Below are positions 38,449 to 56,595 of a DNA stretch of 64,000 nt, piece after piece (position 1 is the stretch's first letter; each line of letters opens with the position of its first letter). Both the position numbers and the translations under genes were made by a program. The notes below the pieces were generated by a model. The model made no database searches. It saw only the letters and a program-made list of their open reading frames with translations, and was not told the DNA's origin. The stretch is from a virus (taxonomy: Duplodnaviria; Heunggongvirae; Uroviricota; Caudoviricetes), in IMG/VR virus record IMGVR_UViG_3300045988_007243; one strand, given 5' to 3'.

Positions 38449-38460
38449 ATAATATATACC

Positions 38461-38989: not shown

Positions 38990-38991
38990 AG

Positions 38992-39261
38992 TTACTTCCT
39001 CGTTTTAAGAACTGCTAAGATTTCTTTAGAGTCTGGTAAGAACCATGTGTAGTGATTCTCTTTGATTTCTGGATGAGTGTCAACCTTTATTTTGCACTCT
39101 TTACCAACATGCTTAAGTTGTGCTGTGACACCTTGCATAAAGATATGGCACATCACATTATCCATAATGGTTGGTGAGAAATCAACCCGCATATAAGTTT
39201 CTTTTGGTCGTGGTAGCAGTAAGTACCCTTCTACATAGAAAGTATCTTCGTTCTCTGTCAT
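38992..39261 (-). CDS. hypothetical protein
   Basis: 89 aa ORF. Confidence 0.35.
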   Translation of the reverse strand: MTENEDTFYVEGYLLLPRPKETYMRVDFSPTIMDNVMCHIFMQGVTAQLKHVGKECKIKVDTHPEIKENHYTWFLPDSKEILAVLKTRK

Positions 39262-39527
39262 TGCTGCTTATTCCCTAATAAAATCATGTCAATAAGGTTA
39301 TTAGCTTTGATTGTACACTGGTAAAATCCGTCACGGTAGAACTCAAGTGCTGCTGCTACATCACTACCTGTGTTGCCTTTGATAATATACCGTGATTCTT
39401 CTTGTGTGTACTTATCACTCTCACTTACTTGGGAGTTTTTGAATGTACTGCTCACTTTGTTCGTTGAACACCCTGACATAGTTATCAGTAACACAAACAT
39501 TATAAAACTCTGGCTTAGTTTTTTCAT
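39258..39527 (-). CDS. o-spanin-like lipoprotein (embedded/overlapping)
   Basis: 89 aa; signal peptide with lipobox (LITMSGC); start lies inside the preceding ORF in another frame. Confidence 0.5.
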   Translation of the reverse strand: MKKLSQSFIMFVLLITMSGCSTNKVSSTFKNSQVSESDKYTQEESRYIIKGNTGSDVAAALEFYRDGFYQCTIKANNLIDMILLGNKQQ

Positions 39528-39768
39528 ATGTTAGTACCTCTTTTGTATGCTTATTCTTAGCAAGCACATCTTTCAAATCATTTTTGTAATTGGTGCTGAG
39601 TGTGGCTAAACCTTCCTGATAAGCATCTTTAGCAACACTTATTAGTTTCTCATTATTTAGCTCAGTTTCAGCAACTTGATAGTCTCTGTAAGAGTATCCT
39701 CCCCAGACACCTGCACCAACTAAGAAAACAATTATGAAAGTAGCTTGACAGAACTCTTTAAATGTCAT
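39421..39768 (-). CDS. i-spanin-like protein
   Basis: 115 aa; N-terminal transmembrane helix then helical periplasmic domain; overlaps lipoprotein gene. Confidence 0.5.
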   Translation of the reverse strand: MTFKEFCQATFIIVFLVGAGVWGGYSYRDYQVAETELNNEKLISVAKDAYQEGLATLSTNYKNDLKDVLAKNKHTKEVLTYEKTKPEFYNVCVTDNYVRVFNEQSEQYIQKLPSK

Positions 39769-39792
39769 TTAACAATCTCCTAAAATGAAAAA

Positions 39793-39815
39793 GGCTCCCG
39801 AAGGAGCCTGTATCT
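39793..39815 (-). terminator. intrinsic terminator
   Basis: Minus RNA: aggctccttcgggagcct hairpin followed by TTTTTCATTTT. Confidence 0.55.
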
Positions 39816-39820
39816 TAACC

Positions 39821-40285
39821 TTAACCGAGGACTTTAGCAAGGATATTCGCAGCCATCGAAGAAGCTTTTGCAGCAGCAGCTACCCCAGCTTTGATAGCGT
39901 TATCCTTGATAGCAGATACCGTTGCAGCATCAGTAAAGAGATAAGTAGTTGTTTTAGAACCACTTGTAAAGGAAAGCATAAGAGCAGTTTCCAGATTGAA
40001 AGAGCGATACGGAGCACCTTCTTTAACGATACCTTCAGCACCTAATTCTGAGGCCATCCCCATATCATAGATAGTCATCAGGTTTTCTTTGTGTGCAGTC
40101 GTTGAACCAGAACCTTTGACGTGTTTCTTAACATTCAAAAGAGCACGATACTCTCGGATGTTGCCGTCTGCTTTTACATTGACAGCACGGAAGATTTTAC
40201 CCTCAAAGTTGTTCTTGATAATGTTACGAACTACTTCAGATTTGTTTGCCGTAACGTCCAGTGCTACCGTAATGATATTGTTCAT
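39821..40285 (-). CDS. hypothetical protein
   Basis: 154 aa, Ala-rich C-terminus. Confidence 0.4.
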   Translation of the reverse strand: MNNIITVALDVTANKSEVVRNIIKNNFEGKIFRAVNVKADGNIREYRALLNVKKHVKGSGSTTAHKENLMTIYDMGMASELGAEGIVKEGAPYRSFNLETALMLSFTSGSKTTTYLFTDAATVSAIKDNAIKAGVAAAAKASSMAANILAKVLG

Positions 40286-40409
40286 AAGTTTTCTCTCAAT
40301 GTTTAACTAACATGGTTTTGATGTGTGGAAGGATTCTGTTCACCTTCTGCACATTCTTCTCTGTATCTTCTATAAAACATACTATATTAAAGTAAGGAAG
40401 AATGCAAGA

Positions 40410-40991
40410 CTAAATCATCCTCACTTTCAAACTTTCTGCACTTATAGAGTTAGTTCCAAAACCACGCATAAAAAGCAAGTAATCATGCTCTATATTGTGC
40501 CTTAAAAACATCTCAGTAGGTATTCTCTGAGATTCACCTCTCGCTGTCAAGAGTCCAATTGCAGCATGGTTAGCAATTGCATCAATAATATTGAAAACAT
40601 ACGTTGGTTTTGCTCTTACAGAGTCAAGCAAATTAGTGTACTGTGAAAATGACCCATCAATCAATTCTGTTGAGCAATCTTCGTGATTAAAATTTGTAAG
40701 AACACCATCAATATCTGCTAAGATGAGGTTACCTTTTTCTACAAGGTCTTTATTGACTATGACTAAGCTGTCACGCCTTACACCTATAGTTTGTCCAGTC
40801 TCTTTATCTACAACATTCACAATTGTCTCTGATGTGTGGAACTCTTCGAGTGAACATACAACTTCTCTTGCGGTGTCTTCAAAATCCCTACACTGTTCTG
40901 GAGTCCATACACAGGAATCAAGACCTAACTCATGAGGGTGCAAGTCGTAAGCATGGCACAGTACTTCATCAGACTTTCTTAATTTTTTCAT
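40410..40991 (-). CDS. HAD-superfamily hydrolase-like protein
   Basis: 193 aa; motif I-like LILADIDGVLTN. Confidence 0.4.
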   Translation of the reverse strand: MKKLRKSDEVLCHAYDLHPHELGLDSCVWTPEQCRDFEDTAREVVCSLEEFHTSETIVNVVDKETGQTIGVRRDSLVIVNKDLVEKGNLILADIDGVLTNFNHEDCSTELIDGSFSQYTNLLDSVRAKPTYVFNIIDAIANHAAIGLLTARGESQRIPTEMFLRHNIEHDYLLFMRGFGTNSISAESLKVRMI

Positions 40992-41517
40992 GGTTTACCT
41001 TAGAAATGTTTGTTGCAAATTCACATTGAGCAATCACTTTCATATTGTTATAGACATCTTGAGAATATTTCTTAGCTTTAGGAATTTTGTATGAATACCC
41101 AGCATTATAAGATGCTAAAACTTTTTGTAAAGTCTTCTTTGACTTTGGTTGACCATGTACCTTCGTCCAAAACTCAAGCTCTTTGTGAGTTTCCTTAGCA
41201 GCATAATCAAAGTCTTTTAAGAGTTTCTTTTTAGCCACATTAGGACTAATTTTGTTACGCTTTACAACAGTCTTCAAGTGATTCTGGAAAATACCATAGT
41301 CATGGGTCTTTTTATTCTCTACCTTCAGACCTAACTCTGACTCTTGTAAGGCTATAGCAGCTAGAGTGATACCCCAACCTTTACCCATATTATTCTCACC
41401 ATACTGGTAAGCTTTTAACATGTTTACTTTTTGGCTAATTGATAGCTCTGGGCAGTCAACTGCATAAGATAAGTGTGCTGTAAACATTAAGCACAAACCT
41501 AGAATCAATTTCTTCAT
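40969..41517 (-). CDS. secreted lytic transglycosylase (SLT domain)
   Basis: 182 aa; N-terminal signal peptide; SLT motifs (ALQESELG, YGIFQ, SYNAG). Confidence 0.55.
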   Translation of the reverse strand: MKKLILGLCLMFTAHLSYAVDCPELSISQKVNMLKAYQYGENNMGKGWGITLAAIALQESELGLKVENKKTHDYGIFQNHLKTVVKRNKISPNVAKKKLLKDFDYAAKETHKELEFWTKVHGQPKSKKTLQKVLASYNAGYSYKIPKAKKYSQDVYNNMKVIAQCEFATNISKVNHEKIKKV

Positions 41518-41577
41518 TGGTTCCCCTGTTTAGTTTATCGTGACATCAATTATACAGCACTCTGCACAAAATACAAA

Positions 41578-41608
41578 TAAAAAAGGCCGCCGAAGCAGCC
41601 TTTTAAGA
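41578..41608 (-). terminator. possible intrinsic terminator
   Basis: aaggc-N10-gcctt hairpin followed by T-rich run on the minus strand. Confidence 0.35.
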
Positions 41609-41617
41609 AATTACTTA

Positions 41618-42727
41618 TTAGATTTCACGTTTACGTTGAGAGATGAGTTCACCAGCAGTGCCAACGATGACATGCAAAGCTTCAGTCTTACCGTCCCATG
41701 CTTCCAGCACTTTACGTTGATTATCAACGATTGCTGCAACTTCATAACGAGAGGAACGCATCTTCATATCGTTGTAATCAGTTGGAACAGATACAACATC
41801 TCGTGGATGGACACGAACCTTCAGGATTGTATCACCTGAGAAGCAACGAACATAATCCCAAGCACCAACATGAAGACCTTGAGAGCAAGTTACGTTACGG
41901 TTATTATCAACCATCCAACGTGGCATTTCTACAATGTTACCCAAATCATTAGGCACTTTGTAGGTGTGAGAGTCAACCAGCTTGCCTTCACGAGTAGAGA
42001 CTTTCTTCCAACCAATGATGTAGCCTTCTTCATCAATTTCAACATCAAGGTGAGATACAAATCCCCAAAGTTGTTCTACAGAATCTTTAGATGGGTTTTC
42101 CATCAGTTTTTCGAAGAACATCACAAGGCGTTCGAAACCTTTATCTCCAGTCTTCATCATGTGAAGAATACGGTCAACCAGAGTAGAACGCATCTCAACA
42201 GCACCGTAGAATAACTTGTCACCTTTGATTGTGATAGCTCCCTGCGTGAAGTTTTCGATAGACTTACGAATGTTCATCAGTTCAAAGGCTTTCTTGAACT
42301 CACCTTTCACAACATGAACTACAATCTCTTGATAGTTCGGATGAGTAGACTCAACAATTTCAGATTCTGAACCGTAAGTCATAATTACAGAGTCGCCAGT
42401 AATCATGTACTCAATCTTGTCATCTTTCTGCATAGCTTCGTGCAGTTTATTTACTGGAGCTTTCTGTACAGAATCTTTAACAACCTTTTTAACTGGCTTG
42501 TCAGCTTTCTTTTTAAAGGTCTTAGCAACTTGCTTCAAAGTCTTCGTAGCTGGTGTAGAAGTCGCCTTTTTATTCCCTTTTAAGGTTGCTTCATGACGCT
42601 CTACAGCACGACCGACTGAACGGGTTGAGGTATTAAATTTCTGTGCAATAGCTGTTTTAGTCAGCTTGCCCTCTTTAACCAGTTTGTAAATTTCTGCGTC
42701 AATCTGTGCTTTAGTTTTGGTAGTCAT
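41618..42727 (-). CDS. rIIB: rIIB-like protein
   Basis: 369 aa with N-terminal HTH-like segment, immediately downstream of rIIA-like gene. Confidence 0.45.
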   Translation of the reverse strand: MTTKTKAQIDAEIYKLVKEGKLTKTAIAQKFNTSTRSVGRAVERHEATLKGNKKATSTPATKTLKQVAKTFKKKADKPVKKVVKDSVQKAPVNKLHEAMQKDDKIEYMITGDSVIMTYGSESEIVESTHPNYQEIVVHVVKGEFKKAFELMNIRKSIENFTQGAITIKGDKLFYGAVEMRSTLVDRILHMMKTGDKGFERLVMFFEKLMENPSKDSVEQLWGFVSHLDVEIDEEGYIIGWKKVSTREGKLVDSHTYKVPNDLGNIVEMPRWMVDNNRNVTCSQGLHVGAWDYVRCFSGDTILKVRVHPRDVVSVPTDYNDMKMRSSRYEVAAIVDNQRKVLEAWDGKTEALHVIVGTAGELISQRKREI

Positions 42728-42806
42728 CTTATTACTCTCTCTTGTTAGTTAATAAATCATTTTGTGATGCTATTCTAAGGGGCTTTGAAGCCCCTTGTCA
42801 AACACT

Positions 42807-45173
42807 TTAATCGTAAATTGTAGTCCCTTCTGGAACACACTTCACATCAAAGCCTAAGAACTTACCCACTTCGATAGGTGACACTTTATTCCAATCTAAA
42901 TGAGAAAGCAAGAAGTTTTCTTGTTTTCTTTTTGAAAGGTAGTTTGTCACCTTAATGACCATGCGGTCACCAGCTTTCTTAATTTTCTTGTAAAGCTTTG
43001 TATCATTGTCAAGGCATTCTTTCAAAGTTTGCAATCTACTAACAGTGTAAGTGTATGCAAACGGTGCAGCAACGTATTGGATTTTACCGAACATTGCCTC
43101 TACAGCCTCTTCATTACCTTCTAGGAAGATAGTTTTGTTTGTATCCAGTGAATAGCAATAACCACGAGAAATCTTCCTATTATTGAATGTAAAGTTTCTG
43201 GCAATAATCCAGCTACTTGTAAGGTCAAGAACACCATCCATGTAGATGCGTGTCATATACCTGTTATGATTAATCCAATGAACATCAGTTAAGCTGTCAT
43301 TCAAGAGCTTCTCATCTACTTCAATCCAGTCTTCTGGTATCTTTTTCCAATTTGCTTTTCGGAAAACATAGACTGTCTTTCCAATAACATTAGCAACTGA
43401 CTTAGCTACATCTTCTGGGGATGAGCAAAAACATCTACCATCAACTGTGTCGCCTACTGCCTTGATATAAAGCTGAGACTCTTCAATTGTGTCTAAGTCC
43501 TCTGACACCTCTTTGTAGGAGGCTACACCTTCTGCTGGAACAGCTTTCCAGAGTTTTACAACACCTCTTACAGCTTCTTTACGCTGGTAATGGTGTTCCT
43601 TATCAGACATTTTCACAATCTTTAACAAGCTTTTATCAAGTTTGTGCAGATTGATTAAGTCATCTAACTCTTTTTCAGTCGAGAATACAAAGACAATACC
43701 ATTGTATCTGTGAAACAGACTAGACTCACTTGCATAGTCTCGACATGCACCACGCAAGATTTGGTTACGCCCAACAGTCTTCTCAGTGCCATTTTTATTT
43801 CGACGGTCATTAATCACGAACAAAAACTGTCCAATCTGGCTTTTGCGCATTGCACCAAAGATGTTGAACATGCTCGCCTCTTGAGTGTAGGATAGTGCTG
43901 TTGCACGAATCTTACTCTCTAAAGAGTTAAACTTGACATAAGCAACTGGGTCATAAAGATAATCTACTTTAGGGATATTGTTCCCGTTCCTATCAACCTT
44001 AATATTACCTTTACCGTCACGTTCGTAAATGACTGAGCCGTCTTCTGCGTAGATAATTCCACGACGAATGTTTAGCAATTCTTCTTCCAGAGAATCAAGC
44101 TTAACACCTCCCCACTCTAGCTTTGGACACACAGCATTAAACATCTCTCGTGAGTTCAAACGTAACTCAGCATAAGCCTGTGCAGCATCCATGAGTGTAG
44201 GTTGACTATTAACTTTCTTGATAACATCCTTTGTAATCGCTTCAGTTATCTTTTTAGTAGCCTCAATGATAACATTTTTTGTCGTATCATTCATCTGCAA
44301 TGCTTCACGAGAAGCTGCAATAGCAACTGAACCAATAGGCATGTAGATGTTTACAAGGTCTACGCTCCTACGGAAAAACTCTGGCAAGACTTTGAAGAAA
44401 TCATCACCAAGTAATGCTTCCATGTTCACTGGATAGGCAATATTACCCATCACCACATTAAACTCTGTCCTGTTACCACTAGAACGCCAGCTTTGCTTAT
44501 GAATCATGGCATCATAAACACCTTCTTCACGGGCAATGACGTTCATATCTGCTAATACATCGTCGTACTCAATATTACTTTCTGGTTTTACAGTGAAGTA
44601 TGAGTACACATTTCCAGCTTCTTCAAAGAACTTTGAGATACGGTGGTCAGCAACTGCCACACGTACAGCTAAACCATTAGGTTCTTTTGTTGGGTTAGTT
44701 GTCAGCTTAGTTACTTGAGGGATACCATTCTCAAGATAAACAGAGTACTTATTAACAACACCGTCAACATAGCTAGATACTGTGAATGACTGAGCAATTG
44801 CAAATGGTGACTTTGAGCCGATACCCATTGCACCAATGTAGTCATTAGAGTCATTCTTCGTAGAAGCTCCATAGTTTAGGTACAAACTCATAACTTTATC
44901 ATGAGTCAATCCAGTTCCAAAATCACGAACTTCAAAGTAAGGCTCAAAACGAGTAGGTAAATGCACATGGAACGGGATGTTCTCTTTTCCAGCTTCTTTC
45001 TGAGCATCTACTGCGTTACATGACAGTTCACGAATCACTGCCCTTTCTTTAAAGGTATACACACCAGAACTCAAAAGGCTGAACATCTCAGGTGTCATTG
45101 TAATCTGTGCTTGAGACGTCTCTAAAGAAGTTGAACTCTTAATCACTTCTGCGTGGTCATTTACCATGCGCAT
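42807..45173 (-). CDS. rIIA: rIIA-like protein (N-terminal GHKL/HATPase_c-type domain)
   Basis: 788 aa; N-terminal ATPase-like motifs (ELSCNAVDA, RDFGTGL, GAMGIGSKS); size and rIIB-like neighbour. Confidence 0.55.
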   Translation of the reverse strand: MRMVNDHAEVIKSSTSLETSQAQITMTPEMFSLLSSGVYTFKERAVIRELSCNAVDAQKEAGKENIPFHVHLPTRFEPYFEVRDFGTGLTHDKVMSLYLNYGASTKNDSNDYIGAMGIGSKSPFAIAQSFTVSSYVDGVVNKYSVYLENGIPQVTKLTTNPTKEPNGLAVRVAVADHRISKFFEEAGNVYSYFTVKPESNIEYDDVLADMNVIAREEGVYDAMIHKQSWRSSGNRTEFNVVMGNIAYPVNMEALLGDDFFKVLPEFFRRSVDLVNIYMPIGSVAIAASREALQMNDTTKNVIIEATKKITEAITKDVIKKVNSQPTLMDAAQAYAELRLNSREMFNAVCPKLEWGGVKLDSLEEELLNIRRGIIYAEDGSVIYERDGKGNIKVDRNGNNIPKVDYLYDPVAYVKFNSLESKIRATALSYTQEASMFNIFGAMRKSQIGQFLFVINDRRNKNGTEKTVGRNQILRGACRDYASESSLFHRYNGIVFVFSTEKELDDLINLHKLDKSLLKIVKMSDKEHHYQRKEAVRGVVKLWKAVPAEGVASYKEVSEDLDTIEESQLYIKAVGDTVDGRCFCSSPEDVAKSVANVIGKTVYVFRKANWKKIPEDWIEVDEKLLNDSLTDVHWINHNRYMTRIYMDGVLDLTSSWIIARNFTFNNRKISRGYCYSLDTNKTIFLEGNEEAVEAMFGKIQYVAAPFAYTYTVSRLQTLKECLDNDTKLYKKIKKAGDRMVIKVTNYLSKRKQENFLLSHLDWNKVSPIEVGKFLGFDVKCVPEGTTIYD

Positions 45174-45359
45174 AATACTTTCCTCTTAGTTTACTGTTAA
45201 ATTACTTATTAAACATTTTACCAGAACCACCACACATAGGGCAACAACCTGCTCTTGTATAACCTTCTCCGTTACAGTAGTCACACTTCTTGTGTTCTGC
45301 AAAGTACTTACAAAGAAGATAAACAAGGACTGCTACACTACCAAGTGACAGTAAAATTT

Positions 45360-45695
45360 CTACCCAATATGCTTGCATGACTCACCTCTCATGTTTTTGT
45401 AAAGGATAAAGCTTCTGTCATGGACGATACTTGTAGATACTGCAAAGTTACTTTCAAGCATCTGTTTGTTTGGATTGTAGAAGCTTTTTTTAAACTCGTC
45501 AAGCGCAAATTGGTGATGGTCTGGAAGACCTTTTACACAAACCTTTATTGTGATTGCTGCTGCAATCTTGCCAGTCAGTTCTTCTTTAGCTGCTACTAAA
45601 ATTTTGTTAAGGAACTTTTTACCATCTTCAGGTTTCTTAATGTTCTCCCAACGTTCTTCTAAGACAATGTTGATGTTCATCTCTTTGATTTTCAT
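45360..45695 (-). CDS. hypothetical protein
   Basis: 111 aa ORF. Confidence 0.35.
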   Translation of the reverse strand: MKIKEMNINIVLEERWENIKKPEDGKKFLNKILVAAKEELTGKIAAAITIKVCVKGLPDHHQFALDEFKKSFYNPNKQMLESNFAVSTSIVHDRSFILYKNMRGESCKHIG

Positions 45696-45713
45696 AATCT
45701 TCTCCAGAAATTA

Positions 45714-45738
45714 AAAAGGCTCCCGTAGGAGCCTCTTA
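45714..45738 (-). terminator. intrinsic terminator after NAMPT-like gene
   Basis: Minus RNA: aggctcctacgggagcct hairpin followed by TTTTTAATTT. Confidence 0.55.
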
Positions 45739-45748
45739 TCATATACTT

Positions 45749-47530
45749 TTAAAGCTGCTTGTCAATATTATTTCGAATATCACCAAGAGTTGTGTAACCG
45801 AACTGCTCAGAGTCACTAAAGACTAAACGTAAAGCACAAGCTGGGTGGTCAAGTACATCTGCAAAACTCTGGAATCCATAGCCATCTACAGCTTTCAGCT
45901 TATCACCATCCCACATAGGTGCTACACCACCAAAGGCAGATTTCTTAACACCACTATCTGTTTTAGGGTCTTTTGCAAGCATAATCTCTTTACCACCAAT
46001 GCTTGCCAGAGTTGCTTTGACAGCAAATGCAAAGGTGTCACGAGTCATGTACTGGTAAGTGTAAGAACCTACACCAAACACTACGTTAGAGCTTGCAAAA
46101 CCCATTTCATACAAACGCTTCAGTATTTCGTTTGCACGTTCCAACGTGATAGAGTCGCCATAAATAAGCCCGATATGCTCATCCAGTACTTTAAAACCTT
46201 TAGAGTTGATAGTTCCCCCAAAGATGTTATACAGTGTCTTGATAGCTCCATCAATCTCCGCTACAGGACGTGTTACAACGTTTGCAGAACCAACCATATA
46301 AGCATTTTTCAACAGCACTGTATCAGCAACTTCAAAGTCTTCTCTGTCAACAACCATTTCGTAGCCTTCTGACAGTAGCCATCCAGCAATACCATAGTTG
46401 ATGTTTTCAAGCTTCATGTTCAGAACAGCATTCAACATTGTGTCGCTGGCTTCCAGCTTGCTTAAGTGTTCGTAATAAGCCTTTTTAGCACACTCTAAAT
46501 GGATTGCTTTGTATCCTGTGACAATATGTACAGGGTCTCCAGAGTCAGGGCGAATTACCAGTTTACCATCACGTTCCATAATTTCTTTACGGAGTGCTGG
46601 TAAGATTTCTGACACAGTTCTCCAGAAGTTATAAGTATCTGAAACAATACTTGCAATACCAGTTGGGTAAGTTTCTGTTAAGAAACGACGGAAGGTTTGT
46701 AACTCACCTTTAAAGCGTCTTTCTTCTTCAATCAACTCATTACCACCTTCCCAAGCAATGTTTGCACACATTACAGAGTGCTCAGTGGCTGGTACAGAAC
46801 TACCAATATCAGAGATTAGGTAAGACTGACCATAGATTCGTTTAGCCGTGTATACAGCAGGGAAACTATCAGTTCCTTTAAAGCTGGTTAAGTGACCTAC
46901 AGCATTAAATGCGTCATCAGTAAAGCCGGACATACCACGCATAGCAAAGTCATGGCACTGATAAGGCAAATGTAAGTCGTTGTCACAAGTAAGGTCAGAC
47001 CACTTCTTACAGATACGTTTGTAGTGCAATGCAATAGTTGCAATGGTACAAGCCTTCCAAATCTCAGCAGAGAAAGCATCTTCCAGATATCCCGCTACCC
47101 AATGGAAACCTGAAACAGTGTTCTGGAAGACAATCATTGGTACACGCATAGGAACAACTGTGCCTTCTTCTACAGCGTAGACTTCAACTGGTAGATAACC
47201 TAAGTCGTGGAGTGCTTCCCAATGTTCTCGACCAATAGCATCTTTGCCCAGAACACCGTTCATGATTTCTAAGATTTCGTCAATTGCTTCTTTTTTGTCA
47301 CGTTCAAAGAAAGTGGCGTTCCAGTGGTCTATCAAGTAATCTTTAACGAAACGTTGAATACCAAAAGCTACTACACCATCAATTGCTAAAGGGCTGTTAA
47401 ACCATTTATCGCTACGTGGTGTCAGGTTCAGCATAAGGTACTGTGTGGCATCTGGATACTGATATATATGTGATGCCTTGTAAGCATCTGCGTTTAAACC
47501 TGCTGGTACTGCATAAAGTGATTTAGTCAT
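45749..47530 (-). CDS. nicotinamide phosphoribosyltransferase family protein (NAMPT/NadV or Namat-like)
   Basis: 593 aa; NAMPT-family signature incl. HDFAMRGMSGF...GHLTSFKGTDS. Confidence 0.75.
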   Translation of the reverse strand: MTKSLYAVPAGLNADAYKASHIYQYPDATQYLMLNLTPRSDKWFNSPLAIDGVVAFGIQRFVKDYLIDHWNATFFERDKKEAIDEILEIMNGVLGKDAIGREHWEALHDLGYLPVEVYAVEEGTVVPMRVPMIVFQNTVSGFHWVAGYLEDAFSAEIWKACTIATIALHYKRICKKWSDLTCDNDLHLPYQCHDFAMRGMSGFTDDAFNAVGHLTSFKGTDSFPAVYTAKRIYGQSYLISDIGSSVPATEHSVMCANIAWEGGNELIEEERRFKGELQTFRRFLTETYPTGIASIVSDTYNFWRTVSEILPALRKEIMERDGKLVIRPDSGDPVHIVTGYKAIHLECAKKAYYEHLSKLEASDTMLNAVLNMKLENINYGIAGWLLSEGYEMVVDREDFEVADTVLLKNAYMVGSANVVTRPVAEIDGAIKTLYNIFGGTINSKGFKVLDEHIGLIYGDSITLERANEILKRLYEMGFASSNVVFGVGSYTYQYMTRDTFAFAVKATLASIGGKEIMLAKDPKTDSGVKKSAFGGVAPMWDGDKLKAVDGYGFQSFADVLDHPACALRLVFSDSEQFGYTTLGDIRNNIDKQL

Positions 47531-47575
47531 CTTTTAATATCTCTCAAAATGGGGCTTTTAAGCCCCTATAAACTT

Positions 47576-48472
47576 TCAATCAAGGTTTGCTACAGTAACT
47601 TGGCCGTAATGTGTTAAGCCACGGTCTTTAGCTTCACCTAAAGAGTTTGTAGTGTAAATATGGTCGATACCATTGTCAAGAAGGTTTTCAACATCTTTAG
47701 AGAAGATACCATGTGTTACATAAAGCTCCACACGTTTTGCACCTGCTTCACGTAGGTGTTTAGCTGCCTCTATGAAGGTTCGACCACCATCACAGATATC
47801 ATCCAGAATCATGACGGTTTTATCTGCCAAATCAACATCATCAAGGATTCGCATACCAGTAATTTCACCAGTCTTAAGGTTACGTACTTTAGACATTGTG
47901 ATGTATGGTTTATCCACCTCTTTAGCAGTCTCTGCAATCTTCTTAGAAGCACCTGCATCTGGGGCTACTAAATAATCAATCAAAGGGTCATTCGCATAGT
48001 GGACTGCAATTTCCTTTTGAGGAATACTTTGGAAGCAGTTAAACAGGTTATCTGGAACGTAACTGTGAGGGTCAACTGCACAGACTGCACCAAATCCCAT
48101 TGCATTTACCTGTTTAGCAAAAACCTTTAAAGCTGCTGCGTCGCCTTTAAACATGTGACGGTCATAACGTGCATTTGGTAAGTAGTAAAAGATGACAGTC
48201 TTTAAAGCATAATCATGAGGAATTAAATCATCAATTGCTTCTTTAGCAAGTGCCACAGCAAACAATGTATCCTTATCATAACCTTTTACAATCATAATCA
48301 CATTGTTGATGGATGATGCTGCATAAGCAGTGAAATCAACAAACTCTGGCGAAAAGTGTCCACCAATCTCACCAGAAGGAAATTGGATGATGTTAAACTC
48401 TTCTTCATGAGTCCCTTTAGTTGGTGAATGAACTGTAACACGGATAGATGTTTTCATAGTTTTCTCTCTCAA
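47576..48472 (-). CDS. ribose-phosphate pyrophosphokinase family protein (PRPP synthetase-like / possible ADPR-PP synthetase)
   Basis: 298 aa; type-I PRTase/Prs C-terminal motif (VMILDDICDGGRTF); N-terminus diverges from housekeeping Prs. Confidence 0.65.
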   Translation of the reverse strand: MREKTMKTSIRVTVHSPTKGTHEEEFNIIQFPSGEIGGHFSPEFVDFTAYAASSINNVIMIVKGYDKDTLFAVALAKEAIDDLIPHDYALKTVIFYYLPNARYDRHMFKGDAAALKVFAKQVNAMGFGAVCAVDPHSYVPDNLFNCFQSIPQKEIAVHYANDPLIDYLVAPDAGASKKIAETAKEVDKPYITMSKVRNLKTGEITGMRILDDVDLADKTVMILDDICDGGRTFIEAAKHLREAGAKRVELYVTHGIFSKDVENLLDNGIDHIYTTNSLGEAKDRGLTHYGQVTVANLD

Positions 48473-48747
48473 TCAAAGGTTATGTTTGTTACTGCCATTG
48501 CAGATTTGCATTTTGCAGGGTCTACAACGTGATAAAGTACACTACAGTTACCTGTGCTGTCTGGTACAGGTTTGACCCATTGATGCTTTATAGTTGGCTC
48601 TCCTAAATCTTTGTAAGAGCCATCTGTAAAATTGTTTACCATCTCAAGTGCAATTGGTTCTGGGACATGACCACGTATCATGTACATCTCACAGCCGTTA
48701 CCACCTTCACTCACTAATGGTAGAATCTCCCACTTTTCTTTAGCCAT
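48469..48747 (-). CDS. hypothetical protein
   Basis: 92 aa ORF. Confidence 0.35.
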   Translation of the reverse strand: MAKEKWEILPLVSEGGNGCEMYMIRGHVPEPIALEMVNNFTDGSYKDLGEPTIKHQWVKPVPDSTGNCSVLYHVVDPAKCKSAMAVTNITFD

Positions 48748-49255
48748 TATAAGTTGCCCTATAAACTGTCTCGAACTTCAACAGGAGAGATATTGCCAAA
48801 TCTGTATAGTTGTTGTCAAGCACATCTGGCATATTATTTTTGATATATTTCTCTTGCTCTTCATAGGTCATCTTGGGGATACTTAGGAGGCTATCTCCTT
48901 GCTTCTGGTTATCAGTTTTAGTTTGGATAAACCAGTTTGCACAGTGATGTTCACCACCTTTTGTAACAGGTTTGTGATGACCTAATGTAAATGTTTGCTT
49001 ACCCGTATACCTGCAAAGATTGTTCAGTGTTGCAATGGTGTTCTTCACAACACACCATTCATACAGGTTATCTATTGTGTAGTGTGGGTAATAACGGACA
49101 AGTGCTCTTTCACGGAAGTTATCACGATTCCAAAGAACCATGTGATTAGAATTTGAAGGGTCATATTTGTGGGAGTCTATAAACTCTTGACGCTCATCAA
49201 AGCTGAGTCTTAGAACTGACATTGCAGCAGAACGTTTTAGGTTTGACAGATACAT
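48740..49255 (-). CDS. HNH endonuclease-like protein
   Basis: 171 aa; His-Me finger-like LGHHKPVTKGGEHHCANW. Confidence 0.45.
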   Translation of the reverse strand: MYLSNLKRSAAMSVLRLSFDERQEFIDSHKYDPSNSNHMVLWNRDNFRERALVRYYPHYTIDNLYEWCVVKNTIATLNNLCRYTGKQTFTLGHHKPVTKGGEHHCANWFIQTKTDNQKQGDSLLSIPKMTYEEQEKYIKNNMPDVLDNNYTDLAISLLLKFETVYRATYNG

Positions 49256-49305
49256 ATCATCTCCAAAATAAAAGGGAACCTTTACAGTCCCCTTATAGTA
49301 TCTGC

Positions 49306-49626
49306 TTACTGAGCTACTTTCAAGATTCTTGTGAATGGAATTTCACTTTCTTCCATTAACTCTTTAGTTTCTTTGGTAACTTTCACAAAGTTATCTAGGC
49401 AGATAATCTTCTTATCTTTCTTACTATAGGTTAATTTAACCTTTTCAATATCTTTCTCAGAGCTTTTCTCTTCATTGAAGAGTTTTACAGCCTCTTTGAA
49501 TGGGATATATGAGCCATCATTATCACTAATGAATCCTGTACCACAATAGTAGGAGTTATGCTCTATAGCCATAAACTGGCACAGTAAGAAAATCTGTAAT
49601 TTACGAGTGTTATAAACTTTGCTCAT
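49306..49626 (-). CDS. hypothetical protein
   Basis: 106 aa ORF. Confidence 0.35.
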   Translation of the reverse strand: MSKVYNTRKLQIFLLCQFMAIEHNSYYCGTGFISDNDGSYIPFKEAVKLFNEEKSSEKDIEKVKLTYSKKDKKIICLDNFVKVTKETKELMEESEIPFTRILKVAQ

Positions 49627-49628
49627 GA

Positions 49629-49913
49629 TTATTTAGCCTTCTTATTACGTTTACGGTTACGAGCTTTCTTAGCTGCTCGTTTAATAGCTGCTGCACCAGA
49701 CTGACGGTGGGCTTGTTTCTTACCACCTTTGCCACGGCCTACATAGATGTAAGGCTGCTGTTCAATTTGGCTTGTAAGAACCTGTGCAACCGCTGAAGCA
49801 TCTACACCGACCTGCTTTCCAGTCATAGAAACAATTGCTGCTGCTTTTGCCAGTGCCTTCAAGAATCCAGCTTTCATATTACCTAAAATTCCCATTTTTA
49901 GTCTCTCTCTCAT
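49629..49913 (-). CDS. small basic protein (hypothetical)
   Basis: 94 aa, Lys/Arg/Ala-rich C-terminus. Confidence 0.35.
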   Translation of the reverse strand: MRERLKMGILGNMKAGFLKALAKAAAIVSMTGKQVGVDASAVAQVLTSQIEQQPYIYVGRGKGGKKQAHRQSGAAAIKRAAKKARNRKRNKKAK

Positions 49914-49993
49914 TAAAGTTTAATACAGAACTTATGAAGTTCTTCTTCAGTGATACCAATTGGAGTTATACCTTAGTCCATTTGCCAGAATAA

Positions 49994-50479
49994 TCATTCT
50001 GCTCGCCATTGGCAATCGCCTTGCCACCCATACTCTTTTCTCCAGAGGTTTTGGTTATCAGAACCACGATATGGTTTAACTGTTGGTTTAGATGAATCAT
50101 ACTTACCATCAATCACCACGTCAACATATTTCATCACATCAAGGTGAATTTTTTCATGTAACTGAAAACCTGTCCAGAGCCAGATAGATTTTTCTGGGTA
50201 AACGGTTTTAATACGTTTGCATATGTTGGTAACCTCTTGAATGTTTCTATCATCCAGAGGTTCTCCACCAAGTATTGACAGCCCACTGATGGCATTATCA
50301 TCCATTAACTTAATGATGCCATAAAGGTTTGCATAAGTGAACTCTTTACCAGCATTAAACTTCCAAGACTCCCTGTTAAAGCAGCCTTCACAGTGATGTT
50401 TACAGCCAGCTACGAAGAGGCTTACACGAACCCCTTCACCATTAGCTGTGTCAAATGGTCGAATCTCCATGTAATTCAT
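49994..50479 (-). CDS. nrdG: anaerobic ribonucleotide reductase activating protein (radical SAM)
   Basis: 161 aa; CxxxCxxC cluster motif (GCKHHCEGC); close to nrdD. Confidence 0.75.
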   Translation of the reverse strand: MNYMEIRPFDTANGEGVRVSLFVAGCKHHCEGCFNRESWKFNAGKEFTYANLYGIIKLMDDNAISGLSILGGEPLDDRNIQEVTNICKRIKTVYPEKSIWLWTGFQLHEKIHLDVMKYVDVVIDGKYDSSKPTVKPYRGSDNQNLWRKEYGWQGDCQWRAE

Positions 50480-50514
50480 CTAGTTACCTCACCAATATTA
50501 TTTAATTGTTTTAC

Positions 50515-50910
50515 TCATTCAAACACCACCTGACAAGGAACCTGTTTAGTAATAAATTCTTCACAGTGCTCTTTAATGAAGTTTTGTAATGGTACACAAT
50601 CTTGTGCGCAAGTCATTAGCATAATGTACTCTGGATTCATAATATTTTCAAGACTGTAGAAGACAACATCGTTAGATAGTTCATGACCGTCTTCTTCAGA
50701 CCAAGTTCCAGTGACTACAGCTAATTTGTCAAGCAATTCATTAGGCAATGCTACACCATCTTCTACAGAATCACTTAGAACGTTGTCGCTGATGTACAAT
50801 GTGAAGGTCGTATGGAATGTTGAATATCTTACGTGATTCTTTTCGCAAGAGCCACACTCTGAGGCGTAGTCTTTAATCCACTCTAACTGTTTTTGGTTCA
50901 ACTTAATCAT
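50515..50910 (-). CDS. hypothetical protein
   Basis: 131 aa, Cys-containing. Confidence 0.35.
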   Translation of the reverse strand: MIKLNQKQLEWIKDYASECGSCEKNHVRYSTFHTTFTLYISDNVLSDSVEDGVALPNELLDKLAVVTGTWSEEDGHELSNDVVFYSLENIMNPEYIMLMTCAQDCVPLQNFIKEHCEEFITKQVPCQVVFE

Positions 50911-51107
50911 AATTTCACCCTAGTTGGTAATGCACTGAATGCTATAGCTAACCCTAAAAATGGTTTGAAGCATGACCATAAATCCATTTGTCCATGATAT
51001 GATAAACTCCATTGTGGGTCTGAAAAACCCCATACCATAACACTAACCCCAAAGAAGAAGATTAGAATGTGGAGTATGTATATCAACGTTTTTGATATTT
51101 TAAACAT
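50907..51107 (-). CDS. small membrane protein (hypothetical)
   Basis: 66 aa, two hydrophobic helices. Confidence 0.35.
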   Translation of the reverse strand: MFKISKTLIYILHILIFFFGVSVMVWGFSDPQWSLSYHGQMDLWSCFKPFLGLAIAFSALPTRVKL

Positions 51108-51271
51108 TTTAACTTATCTCTCAATTCACAATAAGAAAGTCCTAAAAAGAACCCTAGTAAGACAGAACCTATGAATAGGCCAATGATGTTCTCTGCCATA
51201 TCTAACATCCAATAAAAAAGGTGATGTAAGCCTATCAAGACCCACACCACCTTGTCAAGTTTTACATAAGG

Positions 51272-51829
51272 TTATTTTTTCTTACAATTGTCAAAATGAT
51301 ATCGAGTCATGTTACCAGCACCACCAGTCATACCACAATGAGGGCAAGTTTTCTTTTTCTTTGGCTTTTTTCCGGCTTCTGACATCTTCTTCCTTGTTTC
51401 TATAGACCTTTTACAACCTTTTGATTTTGTATTGCCTATTTGAGATTCTCCTAATCGTCTTCGATGTTCTTCAGTGAAAACCCTACCTTTATTCACAATA
51501 GATAAAGCTTTCGAGTTCAAAGCTCTTACCTTTTCATAGTCTCTGGATGATATTTTCCTATCTAGGCCATCATGAGCTAACCTGTTCCATGCAAACCATA
51601 ACTTATGATTGTTTGGATACATCTTAACCAGTAATTTATGAGCTATATAATGCTCTCTAGGTGTAAGCAAAGCAATATTATCTCCACTAATTTTATCTCC
51701 ACCTAGACATACTGGTATGATATGGTGTCTTTCATAACCCTTACCTTGACATTTGTAGTATGTAAGAGGCACACCCCTTTCAGAATGTGCCTTCTTAATA
51801 ATTGCATTATATATTAGTTCGTAATTCAT
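51272..51829 (-). mobile_element. free-standing HNH homing endonuclease gene downstream of nrdD
   Basis: HNH motif (ERHHIIPVCLGGDKISGDNIALLTPREHYIAH) plus Cys-rich C-terminus; start set at internal ATG because ORF-track start overlaps nrdD. Confidence 0.6.
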
Positions 51830-51836
51830 TTGTATG

Positions 51837-52784
51837 CTACATAGAAACCCTATCCTTAATTTCTGCCATCTTAGCGTCATTCATTCGAGACTGACCTTTA
51901 ATTTTTGTGAATGACAAGTACCCGCACACCCTGTTAATCACAGAGATATCATGTGAATGGCAAACCTCACATTCTTCAACATCAGCCTTTGGTCTGTTAC
52001 CACAATGTTCACAGATTGCTAAGTCAAAGTTAAGCCCTTGATAAAAACCTTTCAACATCCCTCTTGTAATACAACTTTTAAGTGCTGGTAAGTTTTCTGG
52101 GTTAGCTACCCTTACATACTGGATTCTGCCACCTCTACAGATATGGAAGAATGGCTCTTCTAATTCCTGCTTCTCAAATGGTGAGATGTTTGCTGCAACA
52201 TTCATATGGAAACTGTTTGTAAAGTATTCCTTGTCAGAAACGCCTTTAATAACACCAAACATATCTCTGAACTGTTTTAGCTGAGTTCCACACAATGACT
52301 CTGCTGGAGTGCCATATACTGCATACAGGAAGCCATCTTCATTCTTAAACTCTTCAGTTTTCATGTTAATGTATGCCAGAACATCGTATGCAAAACTGGA
52401 ACTTCCAACTTCATGAAGTCGTTTACCTTCAGCAAGAACAGATAACTCATCAAGAGCAGTAACCCCAAAAGAAGCTGTGAAGGACTTCACAATATCCCAA
52501 CCAACCTTGTCAGTAGGCTTCTTAGTCCCTTTATACAGACCACCTTGTGTGAATGCAAGAGGGTTAGAACTTGCTGGCATATTGGCAATCATTTCGTAAC
52601 GTTTCTTATGGAAGCTGCGAATCATTTCTAGGTACTTATCAAGCTCTTTCCAGAAATCTAAACCATTCTCTTTAGAATACTGGTAAATCATTGGTAAGTT
52701 CAAAGATACAGCACCAATGTTAGCACGACCTACATAAAACTCTTCACCATATTCGTTATGGTATGGTGATAAAAATGCTCTACA
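51837..52784 (-). CDS. nrdD: anaerobic ribonucleoside-triphosphate reductase, exon 2
   Basis: Frame stays open upstream of ORF-track start (TTG at 52703) and encodes CRAFLSPYHNEYGEEFYVGRANIGAVSLNLPMIY, continuing from exon 1 ...VISPMG; glycyl-radical motif RVCGYL near C-terminus. Confidence 0.7.
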   Translation of the reverse strand, partial: CRAFLSPYHNEYGEEFYVGRANIGAVSLNLPMIYQYSKENGLDFWKELDKYLEMIRSFHKKRYEMIANMPASSNPLAFTQGGLYKGTKKPTDKVGWDIVKSFTASFGVTALDELSVLAEGKRLHEVGSSSFAYDVLAYINMKTEEFKNEDGFLYAVYGTPAESLCGTQLKQFRDMFGVIKGVSDKEYFTNSFHMNVAANISPFEKQELEEPFFHICRGGRIQYVRVANPENLPALKSCITRGMLKGFYQGLNFDLAICEHCGNRPKADVEECEVCHSHDISVINRVCGYLSFTKIKGQSRMNDAKMAEIKDRVSM

Positions 52785-53526
52785 CTTGTTGTTCAGGTAA
52801 GTTCGCTAAGCTTACCCCGCTTTATTCAAGCTGCTTACTGTCGCCAGTAAGTCCAGACTATATCTTCTACTTATTTCTAAGTAGCGTACCATTTCGAGTC
52901 GCTTGACCCTACACCGCTACATTCATCACGGTTAGTCGTTCGGCATTTAGATGTATTCAAACTCATATTCGAAGTTATTATGCTCTTTTACACCCTTCAA
53001 TATTGAAGAGATGGTCTTGCGATTGTGTCCAAGTATATTGGATAACTCTCGTATTGACTTAGTAACAATAACTTCCTTTGTCACTTTGTGTGTGGCTTTC
53101 ACGGCATATGAACGCTTGTGGAACTTGTAGCACCCGTTCTCATAACCTTCTTTAGCATTCTCAGAATGAGTACCCCATTCTAAGTTGGATGCGTGGTTAT
53201 TTAGTTTGTTATCGTCCTTATGTTTTACAATTGGAAGATTATTTGGGTTAGGTACATATTTCTCAGCAACTAACCTGTGGACATACATGTCACGATTCTT
53301 CTTACCGTAAAACCTCACTTTCATATACCCAGTGTTGGATTTCCACTGCGTAAGCTCTACACCATTTTCCCTAAAGACTTTTCCATCTTCAGTGACGTGA
53401 TAGTTTGGCATGTAAGACTCCTATGTTGTATAGTTTCTTACATCGTACATCATTTAGCACAGGATTGTCTACATCTGTAGAGTTTCCCTGTTTAGGCACG
53501 TTTTAGATGAGCTATAGAGCCTGTTA
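52785..53526 (-). mobile_element. probable group I intron in nrdD carrying an HNH homing endonuclease ORF
   Basis: 742-nt insert between exon 1 (ends ...GGU) and exon 2 (starts UGU...); in-frame stop right after exon 1; insert ends in G; contains HNH ORF. Confidence 0.6.
52947..53411 (-). CDS. intron-encoded HNH homing endonuclease
   Basis: 154 aa; HNH motif (VHRLVAEKYVPNPNNLPIVKHKDDNKLNNHASNLEWGTHSEN) with C-terminal NUMOD-like region. Confidence 0.7.
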   Translation of the reverse strand: MPNYHVTEDGKVFRENGVELTQWKSNTGYMKVRFYGKKNRDMYVHRLVAEKYVPNPNNLPIVKHKDDNKLNNHASNLEWGTHSENAKEGYENGCYKFHKRSYAVKATHKVTKEVIVTKSIRELSNILGHNRKTISSILKGVKEHNNFEYEFEYI

Positions 53527-54723
53527 ACCCATCGGCGAAATAACCTTGCCAGAACGCTCAAAAGCCTCTGCTACAGCACCATGACCAGATACACTTAAGA
53601 AATCTGGATACATAGCTTTAGAGCAACACTCAATAGCTTTACTGTACAGGTGACCTTGACAGATATTTTCATCATGTCTCTTCTGGTCATAAATATAAAC
53701 CAGTTTAGGGAATACAACAGGCTTCTTACTCTTACCTTGTCCATTCATGCGAACATCAAGAATGGTGTTTGCAATCATGTATTGCAGTCGGTTGTCTTCA
53801 TTAGACATATCTGAGTCGAGCAACCCAAATGTTAAAGTTGTGAATGCGAAATCACCACGGCTGCAAGGTACAGTGTTCAGTTTCATTTCAAGTGACTGAA
53901 AACCTTGAGTTAATTCAATCTGTAGCTGCTCCATGACATAATTATGGTAATGTTCTTTAGGAATACCATAAGATGCTGCTTTCTCAGCATGATAGCGTAG
54001 AGACTTCTTAGCATACGGTACAAGCACCTTATCAATCTCTGCTAAAGTAAATCCACCAAATTGCTGTGCAGTTGCTGAAAGAACTACATCACCAATAACC
54101 TGTAAGGCTGACAGCACAGACTTCGGTTCACAGTATTCGATGCCAGACATCTCAAAGCCACCTTTCAGTACTTTACCAATGTCAAACAAGCAACAGTTAA
54201 TGCCGCCAAAAATCAGGTCTCTTAAATCGTGGATATAGATAAACCCTTTTTCAATGGCTTCAAGTTCCTCTGGTGTTAAATGGTACTGCTTAAAGATTTC
54301 TTTAGTCAGGTAACCACGAATAATTGAACCTTTTGTAGAAATTAAACTGCTGTCAAAGTTAGCGTTTTCACGGTCACCTAAGAAGAGCGTGTCTCTAGTC
54401 TTTTGGTAAAGCTCATCCCAATTTTGAGCAACCTCTTTCCGGTAATTTCTGTATGTTGAGTAAGACTCATAAATCTCGTGATTGACTTCTGCCAAAGCAC
54501 CCTCAACAATGCTGTGAATATCATTGACTGAGATGAGTAAATTATTCTGCTTAGTGGACTTTACCAGAATCCTCATAAATGCTGACTCAAGAGCTTGGGT
54601 AACATCTGGTGGGAGTTCTTTATATCCAACCCTGTTAGCTGACTTAGTTACTGCTGCTAAAACTTTTTTGATATCAGGTTCTTCAAGTGAGCCATTCTTT
54701 TTAATAATCTGTACTTTGTTCAT
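53527..54723 (-). CDS. nrdD: anaerobic ribonucleoside-triphosphate reductase, exon 1
   Basis: 398 aa N-terminal part of class III RNR, ending ...YPDFLSVSGHGAVAEAFERSGKVISPMG. Confidence 0.7.
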
Positions 54724-54771
54724 TATTGCCCCTTTACATGCTAAAAAGGTCTCCGAAGAGACCCTTTCATT

Positions 54772-54978
54772 TTAAATCTTTTTAGAAAACTTTGAAACGA
54801 GTTTTCTTAGTTTTTCAGTGATGCCTAGCTGTATCTCTAATATTTCGAAGATAACCCATAGTAACATGGCTCCAAACAATGAACCTTGTTCAAAGTCAGT
54901 AAATAGGTTAACAATCAGCATACCAATCACAATAGCTGGTGCATCAACAACCAAACCTTCCCAAATGCGTTTAAGCAT
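54772..54978 (-). CDS. small membrane protein (hypothetical)
   Basis: 68 aa, hydrophobic. Confidence 0.35.
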   Translation of the reverse strand: MLKRIWEGLVVDAPAIVIGMLIVNLFTDFEQGSLFGAMLLWVIFEILEIQLGITEKLRKLVSKFSKKI

Positions 54979-55213
54979 TATTCACCTCTGCCATAAAATT
55001 CTGTAGCGTCCCAACAGGTTTTAGGTTTTGACCGTCAGTTTTCATGATGAATGGCATCTGACGAACTGGCATCTGTGCAATATCCATCAGGTCTGACAGT
55101 TCATAATCCTGCCCTAACATTCTCACAACATGGTCAATACCACGAGCTTTTGCAAAATTCTTTGCAGTCTCACACTGAGGGCATCCAGTTTTGGAGTAAA
55201 TCACATAAGTCAT
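54971..55213 (-). CDS. glutaredoxin-like protein (NrdH/Grx family)
   Basis: 80 aa with CPQC redox motif, adjacent to nrdB. Confidence 0.6.
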   Translation of the reverse strand: MTYVIYSKTGCPQCETAKNFAKARGIDHVVRMLGQDYELSDLMDIAQMPVRQMPFIMKTDGQNLKPVGTLQNFMAEVNNA

Positions 55214-56540: not shown

Positions 56541-56595
56541 GGTCTCTCCAAAGTTATTTTTAGAGGGTCTTTTACGACCCTCATAGTTGTTAAAA

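Follow-up and report, generated by a model that had tools for sequence, protein, structure and literature searches.

Two adjacent genes of this phage, encoding a NAMPT-like and a Prs-like protein, raise the question of which chemistry they carry out: that of a genuine PRPP synthetase supplying NAMPT, or that of an ADP-ribose (ADPR) pyrophosphate synthetase paired with a nicotinamide-ADPR transferase, the logic of NAD+ reconstitution pathway 1 (NARP1). Both readings were offered in the first-pass annotation of this DNA. The NARP1 system was discovered in genes 79-80 of Escherichia phage JohannRWettstein (Bas63) (Osterman et al., bioRxiv 10.1101/2024.02.11.579819), and our analysis indicates that the two genes almost certainly form a NARP1 operon (Adps and Namat) of a Felixounavirus.

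Gene pair and genomic setting

The window, i.e., the whole stretch of 64,000 nucleotides that was analyzed, represents a Felixounavirus genome with 95-96% nucleotide identity to many members of the genus. Collinearity with Bas63 (reference record MZ501086) spanned window positions 64000..32559. The pair was located between the nrdG region and rIIA, as in Bas63, and consisted of the following genes:

47576..48457, minus strand: adps, predicted ADP-ribose pyrophosphate synthetase, Prs-like, 293 aa from an ATG, homologous to Bas63 gp79
45749..47530, minus strand: namat, predicted nicotinamide ADP-ribose transferase, NAMPT-like, 593 aa from an ATG, homologous to Bas63 gp80

The earlier description of a NAMPT gene immediately followed by a Prs gene was right in that the two are adjacent, but the order of transcription is the reverse, with adps first and namat second after a spacer of 45 nt. 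Order and position were shared with Bas63, as was a spacer of about 45 nt, whereas the window had no counterpart of gene 81, which lies right after namat in Bas63. Public records label such genes prs and nadV. Plus-strand ORFs within both genes (e.g., 45845..46372) were set aside, as they were without supporting evidence.

The Prs-like protein had been given as 298 aa, and a mechanical ORF of that length, starting at a TTG, was present at 47576..48472 on the minus strand. This TTG overlaps the stop codon of the preceding ORF. The ATG at 48457 has the RBS-like GAGAGAGA ahead of it and coincides with the start given for gp79 in the Bas63 annotation, so the probable length of the protein is 293 aa.

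Candidate transcription signals and small ORFs around the pair were as follows:

49272..49294, minus strand: terminator-like hairpin upstream of the pair, from a consensus scan only
49255..48740 and 48747..48469, minus strand: two small ORFs preceding adps
47551..47566, minus strand: GC-rich hairpin in the adps-namat spacer of 45 nt, GGGGCT-TAAA-AGCCCC with ATTTTG after it
45714..45737, minus strand: intrinsic-terminator-like hairpin directly past the namat stop, with a T-rich tail and a 10-bp stem that includes 5 GC pairs, from a consensus scan only

The upstream hairpin suggests that the two small ORFs may be the first of the transcription unit, whose probable 3' end is the hairpin past namat. 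The spacer hairpin (6-bp stem, z = -2.2 by RNA folding) was conserved in Bas63 apart from one loop change; it may attenuate transcription weakly or contribute to RNA stability. The region contained 5 terminator-like sites, which did not exceed the shuffled expectation of 4.1, and the promoter scan was uninformative, with 30 sites versus 17.7 expected, many of them inside genes.

Adps, Namat and the probable route to NAD+

Profile searches with the 298-aa protein yielded matches to Pribosyltran, Pribosyl_synth and phrog_619 (E 2e-96), and the reported Prs/PRTase motif (VMILDDICDGGRTF) was present. The N-terminus had been described as non-housekeeping, which agreed with our alignments: most Prs models aligned only from about aa 92, and two from about aa 58. 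The NCBIfam Prs subfamily model TIGR01251 was barely passed (120.6 vs 113 bits), while all Prs equivalog models were far under their cutoffs, the best being NF002095 with 102 vs 296 bits. Identity was 78% over 293 aa to Bas63 gp79, 38% to Vibrio phage Chester Adps, 35% to the biochemically characterized Adps of Bacillus phage SPbetaL1 and 29% to E. coli Prs, so that in the comparison of Prs with Adps proposed earlier the protein sided with Adps. These pairwise identities suggest that it belongs to the phage Adps clade, apart from cellular Prs. A Namat homologue is found within 10 genes in 97% of that clade, and here namat begins 45 nt past the adps stop.

The pyrophosphokinase active site was intact. 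The RxDR and DPHS motifs and the DDIxDGG loop were conserved, and the catalytic lysine of the flexible loop was kept, with K190 aligned to SPbetaL1 K162, the equivalent of B. subtilis Prs K197. The fold, the RxDR and DPH motifs, this lysine and the PRPP-type loop are all common to cellular Prs, and the best PDB match was an archaeal Prs (E 6e-18). A PDB and literature search for a solved Adps structure that could reveal substrate determinants found none, and published work offered no structural determinant of the choice between ADPR and ribose-5-phosphate; the specificity of Adps is therefore not readable from its sequence. By analogy with the Bas63 and SPbetaL1 literature, the protein would pyrophosphorylate ADP-ribose, not ribose-5-phosphate.

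The 593-aa protein carried the NAMPT signature noted previously, with HDFAMRGMSGF at aa 193-203 and GTD at aa 219-221, and matched NAPRTase PF04095 (E 6e-35) and NAMPT_N PF18127 in profile searches, as well as NF006629 (469 bits) and phrog_448 (E 5e-201). It was 98% identical (579/593) to Bas63 gp80. A comparison of NadV with Namat had been suggested, and the protein sided with Namat: its best solved-structure matches were 9W5W and 9W5X, both SPbetaL1 Namat (E 3e-128), compared to about 1e-39 for human NAMPT. The fold and the His, Arg and Asp core are shared with cellular NAMPT/NadV, and the residues D15, Y17, F195, R198, D221, H251, R327 and D329 were kept (SPbetaL1 reference residues D13, Y15, F189, R192, D215, H245, R306 and D308). 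Mutating R306, the equivalent of R327, abolishes the activity of SPbetaL1 Namat.

Two further Namat-specific features were present. The Namat-specific adenine-clamp motif GSXphiXphiXphiTRD, an aromatic clamp missing from NAMPT (PMC12774641), was present as GSYTYQYMTRD at aa 488-498. The selectivity-clamp loop, defined by a stacking residue and a third position occupied by Arg, Lys or Tyr, read P38-R39-S40-D41-K42-W43, with K42 aligned to SPbetaL1 R40 and followed by W43; it was identical to that of Bas63, for which the same difference from SPbetaL1 has been reported. Compared to SPbetaL1, which shares the two-gene architecture, the Adps lysine, the Namat core and the clamp motif, the window Namat contained three insertions, one of 11 aa (aa 268-278), one of 58 aa (aa 340-397) and one of 19 aa (aa 409-427). 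The SPbetaL1 literature suggests that the protein would prefer ADPR-PP over PRPP and give NAD+ directly. Since Namat is also able to form NMN from PRPP in vitro (PMC12774641), a secondary role in salvage is possible.

In the proposed mechanism, an NAD+-depleting defence (SIR2, TIR, SEFIR or similar effectors) would cut NAD+ into ADP-ribose and nicotinamide. Adps would then move pyrophosphate from ATP onto the ribose C1'' of ADP-ribose, forming ADPR-PP, and Namat would exchange this pyrophosphate for nicotinamide, regenerating NAD+ directly so that phage replication could go on. The analysis itself established the gene structure, the orthology with the Bas63 prototype and the presence of conserved catalytic and specificity residues; the chemistry and the anti-defence phenotype of the pair are predicted from work on Bas63 and SPbetaL1. 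Bas63 without genes 79-80 is sensitized to SIR2-HerA, and NAD+ is partly restored by the wild type. In vivo, ADPR-PP is seen only when the Bas63 operon and the defence system are present together, and the effect of the operon persists in a pncC nadR double-deletion host. As Bas63 Adps resisted purification, the in-vitro evidence comes from the SPbetaL1 homologues (Adps 35% and Namat roughly 45% identical): SPbetaL1 Adps converts ADPR and ATP to ADPR-PP, whereas a Prs-type control reaction gave no measurable product, and SPbetaL1 Namat prefers ADPR-PP over PRPP. Counter-defence by NARP1 has been reported for Bas63 against SIR2-HerA, for FADO against DSR2, and for SPbetaL1 against type I Thoeris and others.

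The names given to both proteins by Pfam, NCBIfam and PHROG, all of them Prs and NAMPT/NAPRT, together with the narrow pass of TIGR01251, would fit a canonical salvage pathway in which the Prs-like enzyme makes PRPP from ribose-5-phosphate, the NAMPT-like enzyme makes NMN, and host NadR and PncC/NadD complete NAD+. We regard this as very unlikely. The Bas63 orthologues make ADPR-PP in vivo and do not depend on host pncC or nadR, which speaks against the true PRPP synthetase envisaged in the first-pass annotation, and the failure of the equivalog models, the empty SPbetaL1 control reaction, the far greater identity to Bas63 Adps than to E. coli Prs and the adenine-clamp motif point the same way. 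A further scheme, in which the Prs-like protein provides PRPP to the larger protein as a true Nampt and an Nmnat is encoded at another locus of the phage, would correspond to NARP2, which exists in phages such as Vibrio phage KVP40 (Nampt and Nmnat), has a homologous NAMPT-fold enzyme and serves the same purpose of NAD+ restoration; moreover, about 23 kb of the phage genome falls outside the window. The KVP40 pathway, however, uses PRPP and needs Nmnat, whereas the partner here is Adps and the clamp is present. Among 20 window ORFs of about 140 aa or more that had no other assignment, none matched Nmnat (CTP_transf_like) or Nudix, and neither is annotated anywhere in the complete genome of the collinear Bas63. 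The published phylogeny also puts Adps-associated homologues in a Namat clade apart from the Nmnat-associated Nampt clade, and this scheme appears extremely improbable.

A macro-domain gene apart from the operon

The macro-domain protein mentioned earlier as lying 7.5 kb away was recovered as follows:

37462..38247, minus strand: macro-domain protein of the phage Tk.4 / Poa1p-like 'phosphatase' family, 261 aa (PF01661, E 5e-7)

The gene lies about 13 genes downstream of the pair. Its product matched the phrog_335 'phosphatase' family (E 4e-114), and shared 29% identity (E 7e-16) with Chester gp175. This Chester protein, whose gene sits between Chester adps and namat, is 98.7% identical to Vibrio phage Gary Adpp. 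Gary Adpp is a demonstrated ADPR-1''-phosphate phosphatase required for the function of NARP1-AP (bioRxiv 10.64898/2026.01.28.702374). The window protein thus demonstrated homology, via Chester gp175, to the Poa1p-like Gary Adpp, and it is a candidate Adpp-like accessory enzyme at a separate locus that might act as an ADPR-1''-phosphate phosphatase.

A DarG-like, anti-DarT glycohydrolase was considered because the sole NCBIfam match of the protein was DarG, with 54 bits vs a cutoff of 250, and because TARG1 and DarG ranked among the top fold matches. We take the catalytic residues of these enzymes to be the lysine K84 of TARG1 (K80 of DarG) and the aspartate D125 of TARG1 (presumably as in Sharifi et al. 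2013). When aligned to TARG1 with HMMER, the window protein had Q90 and G131 at these positions, and Q90 was invariant across the phage macro family. The DarG-like reading was therefore dropped as the leading one. In a Foldseek search with the AlphaFold2 model (pLDDT 88), TARG1, Poa1p and DarG matched about equally (~1e-10; Poa1p E 9e-11).

The three-gene system of phages Gary and Chester (Adps-Adpp-Namat) resembled the window set in all its components, with 38% identity for Adps, 37% for Namat and 29% for the macro protein. It raises the possibility of a split system, in which the macro protein would turn ADPR-1''-phosphate, the product of RES-type NAD+ phosphorylases, or another modified ADPR into ADPR and so feed Adps and Namat. 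We hold this to be possible but doubtful. The near-identity of gp175 to Gary Adpp, the shared family motifs HxCNC, NxYxQ and P-IG-G, the replacement of the glycohydrolase Lys/Asp pair by Q90/G131 and the place of Poa1p among the top structural matches are consistent with such a role, and an Adpp copy 7.5 kb away would have escaped the published survey, whose reach was two genes to each side of NARP1. The identity to Adpp is low, however, and Foldseek scores Poa1p, TARG1 and DarG alike. In the Vibrio phages the macro gene encodes 158 aa and sits between adps and namat, whereas in the window it does not lie within two genes of the operon; it belongs to another probable transcription unit, past a terminator-like site and with promoter-like sites between, and its product has an extra C-terminal domain of about 100 aa without assigned function. 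About 2,700-3,000 phage records contain this macro family, among them T-even phages, which are not known to carry NARP1; with a family so widespread, the co-occurrence with NARP1 may be coincidental.

A divergent adps allele and the meaning of the locus

The main difference from Bas63 within the pair was confined to the N-terminal ~130 codons of adps, which represented a divergent allele with about 60% amino-acid and 65-72% nucleotide identity. Synonymous sites in this segment were saturated (pS 0.78), which ruled out positive selection as a reading of the divergence and points to an old allele moved by recombination. The dN/dS against Bas63 was 0.15 in the C-terminal half of adps and 0.03 in most of namat. 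The data suggest, as a mildly new point, that Felixounaviruses carry two old adps alleles differing mainly in the N-terminal domain.

NARP1 enables phages to withstand NAD+-depleting systems that include Thoeris, DSR, SIR2-HerA and Kongming. As it is an important counter-defence, its correct recognition matters for the annotation of phages and for the choice of therapeutic ones. NARP1 is already known, and the window pair is, judged by sequence, an orthologue of the prototype from the same genus; the pair itself therefore adds no new biology. Mildly new are the divergent N-terminal half of adps and the Adpp-family macro gene that Felixounaviruses have away from the operon. If true, a split NARP1-AP would widen the range of NAD+-depleting defences (such as aRES) that the phage can escape, and the off-operon macro protein provides a testable hypothesis on resistance to RES-type NAD+ phosphorylases.

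The adps-namat gene pair and its orthologues

The ORF list and family matches confirmed the adjacent NAMPT-family and PRPP-synthetase-family genes described in the first-pass annotation. Their adjacency stood, but their order did not, as the Prs-like gene is transcribed first and the NAMPT-like gene second:

47576..48472, minus strand: Prs-like ORF (adps), 298 aa, TTG start
45749..47530, minus strand: NAMPT-like ORF (namat), 593 aa, ATG start

The TTG of adps overlaps the preceding ORF at its stop codon. An alternative ATG lies 15 nt downstream at 48457, with GAGAGAGA just before it, and the orthologue in Escherichia phage JohannRWettstein (Bas63) is annotated from the equivalent position; Adps is therefore probably 293 aa long. 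The 593-aa protein matched the NAPRTase/NAMPT families (PF04095, E 6e-35; NAMPT_N; NF006629, 469 bits; phrog_448, E 5e-201), and the Prs-like protein matched phosphoribosyltransferase and Prs families (PF00156; PF14572; phrog_619, E 2e-96). Most Prs models started at about residue 92 and two at about residue 58, and none of the Prs equivalog models reached its curated cutoff, all scoring far below, in agreement with the non-housekeeping N-terminus proposed earlier. A single profile of 547 positions, phrog_12872, matched Adps with positions 49-224 and Namat with positions 235-534; because it covers both proteins, it suggests that some phages may encode a fused Adps-Namat protein.

Megablast of window 45000-49300 returned 258 phage records at 95-96% identity, mostly annotated as Felixounavirus or as E. 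coli/Salmonella/Shigella phages. In the full comparison, window 64000..32559 was collinear with Bas63 (MZ501086) at ~37.4-69.6 kb with 84-96% identity, and the remainder of the window comprised a tRNA region and structural genes. The 593-aa protein was 98% identical to Bas63 gp80 (Namat; 579/593, no gaps). Adps showed 78% identity to Bas63 gp79 over all 293 residues, 38% to Adps from the NARP1-AP operon (Adps-Adpp-Namat) of Vibrio phage Chester, 35% to that of Bacillus phage SPbetaL1 and 29% to E. coli Prs. The best PDB matches of the 593-aa protein were 9W5W and 9W5X (E 3e-128), versus ~1e-39 for human NAMPT entries; both are structures of SPbetaL1 Namat (Nucleic Acids Research, PMC12774641).

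Namat is distinguished from Nampt by a selectivity clamp, consisting of the helix motif GSXphiXphiXphiTRD, whose aromatic residues stack on adenine, and a variable loop with Arg, Lys or Tyr in third position (PMC12774641). The window Namat carries the motif as GSYTYQYMTRD (residues 488-498) and the loop as K42-W43, the same as in Bas63, and all core residues were kept (D15, Y17, F195, R198, D221, H251, R327, D329, G458-D459). Compared with SPbetaL1 Namat and with NAMPT, the protein carries three insertions (aa 268-278, 340-397 and 409-427; 88 aa in total) that account for its length of 593 aa and are common to Bas63 and partly to the Chester Namat. In Adps, the RxDR, DPHS and DDIxDGG motifs were kept, and K190 aligned with SPbetaL1 K162, mutation of which abolishes activity (bioRxiv 10.1101/2024.02.11.579819).

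NARP1 versus other NAD+ routes

The first-pass annotation had considered either a true PRPP synthetase feeding NAMPT or a pair of the NARP1 type (NAD+ reconstitution pathway 1, Adps plus Namat). NARP1 was discovered at exactly this locus, genes 79-80 of Bas63, and the published data (bioRxiv 10.1101/2024.02.11.579819) contradict canonical salvage, in which the pair would convert PRPP to NMN. Bas63 without these genes was sensitised to SIR2-HerA, wild-type Bas63 partly restored NAD+, the operon effect was still seen in a pncC nadR double-deletion host, and a new metabolite, ADPR-pyrophosphate (ADPR-PP), appeared only when operon and defence system were present together. Purified SPbetaL1 Adps pyrophosphorylated ADP-ribose, whereas the Prs-type control reaction yielded nothing measurable, and purified SPbetaL1 Namat made NAD+ from nicotinamide and ADPR-PP, which it preferred over PRPP. 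The failed Prs equivalog models also argue against canonical salvage, whereas the Bas63 identities and the Namat clamp favor the NARP1-type alternative.

A NARP2-type pathway (Nampt plus Nmnat) was likewise not supported, since it requires an Nmnat: no CTP-transferase-like or Nudix domain was detected among 20 window ORFs of ~140 aa or more that had no other assignment, and no Nmnat is annotated anywhere in Bas63. With canonical salvage contradicted and the required Nmnat not found, we are highly confident that the pair belongs to NARP1, its chemistry as predicted from the homologues. We found no published structural rule for substrate choice by Adps.

Locus anatomy and divergence from Bas63

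The following features surround the pair, the two terminator-like hairpins by consensus match only:

49294..49272, minus strand: terminator-like hairpin upstream of the pair
48740..49255, minus strand: 171-aa ORF (phrog_3500, weak HNH-endonuclease similarity), Bas63 gp77
48469..48747, minus strand: 92-aa ORF (phrog_4726), Bas63 gp78
47551..47566, minus strand: GC-rich hairpin GGGGCT-TAAA-AGCCCC in the 45 nt between adps and namat, with ATTTTG after it
45737..45714, minus strand: terminator-like hairpin directly after namat
51272..51880, minus strand: NUMOD3-motif, homing-endonuclease-like ORF in a ~570-bp stretch adjoining nrdD
52947..53411, minus strand: HNH_3 endonuclease ORF interrupting nrdD, likewise in Bas63
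59512..60267, minus strand: 251-aa ORF with a weak PRA-PH/MazG-like nucleotide pyrophosphohydrolase match (PF01503, E 9e-6)

The spacer hairpin, also kept in Bas63 with one loop change, may attenuate transcription or stabilise RNA. Because the upstream hairpin precedes the two small ORFs, which lie directly upstream of adps, the NARP1 transcription unit may include them.

The first ~500 nt of adps (~47950..48457, minus strand) showed 65-72% nucleotide identity to Bas63, in contrast to >90% in the flanks. Since synonymous sites were saturated (pS 0.78; pN 0.21), this mosaic patch is an old allele brought in by recombination and not a recent adaptive change. Some 159 phage records had the window-type allele, with amino-acid identity of 80% or more, and ~94 had a 60-80% identical type; two old versions of the Adps N-terminal domain appear to occur in Felixounaviruses. 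The window lacks Bas63 gene 81 (114 aa, hypothetical; positions 25509-25853 of the compared Bas63 segment), which in Bas63 directly follows namat (window junction 45693..45696), and the NUMOD3 stretch in turn has no Bas63 counterpart. The Bas63 counterpart of the 251-aa ORF is annotated hypothetical.

A distal macro-domain protein

The macro-domain protein reported near the pair is present:

37462..38247, minus strand: macro-domain protein, 261 aa (PF01661, E 5e-7; phrog_335 'phosphatase')

It belongs to the phage Tk.4/Poa1p-like 'phosphatase' family, which is very widespread (~2,700-3,000 phage records) and includes T-even phages, in which we know of no NARP1. Its AlphaFold2 model was confident (pLDDT 88), and by Foldseek was equally close to TARG1, Poa1p and DarG. 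Gln90, invariant across the phage family, and Gly131 align with the catalytic Lys and Asp of TARG1/DarG, which speaks against a DarG-like glycohydrolase. The protein also has an extra C-terminal beta-rich domain of ~100 aa, which it shares only with its close relatives and with some phages of Pectobacterium.

A Poa1p-like macro protein, Adpp, occurs in 15% of NARP1 operons in a survey that covered only genes within two of NARP1; it removes the phosphate from ADPR-1''-phosphate, which RES-type NAD+ phosphorylases produce, and thereby keeps NARP1 functional (preprint 10.64898/2026.01.28.702374). The window macro domain was 29% identical (E 7e-16) to Chester gp175, which is 98.7% identical to the characterised Adpp of Vibrio phage Gary and lies between adps and namat, whereas the window gene is ~13 genes away from the operon. 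Given this distance, the widespread family, the extra domain and the non-discriminating Foldseek result, a functional link to NARP1 is a hypothesis only, and a rather doubtful one. NARP1 is already known, and the window pair is orthologous to the prototype of the system; moderate novelty would lie only in a possible split role of the distal macro-domain protein akin to NARP1-AP.
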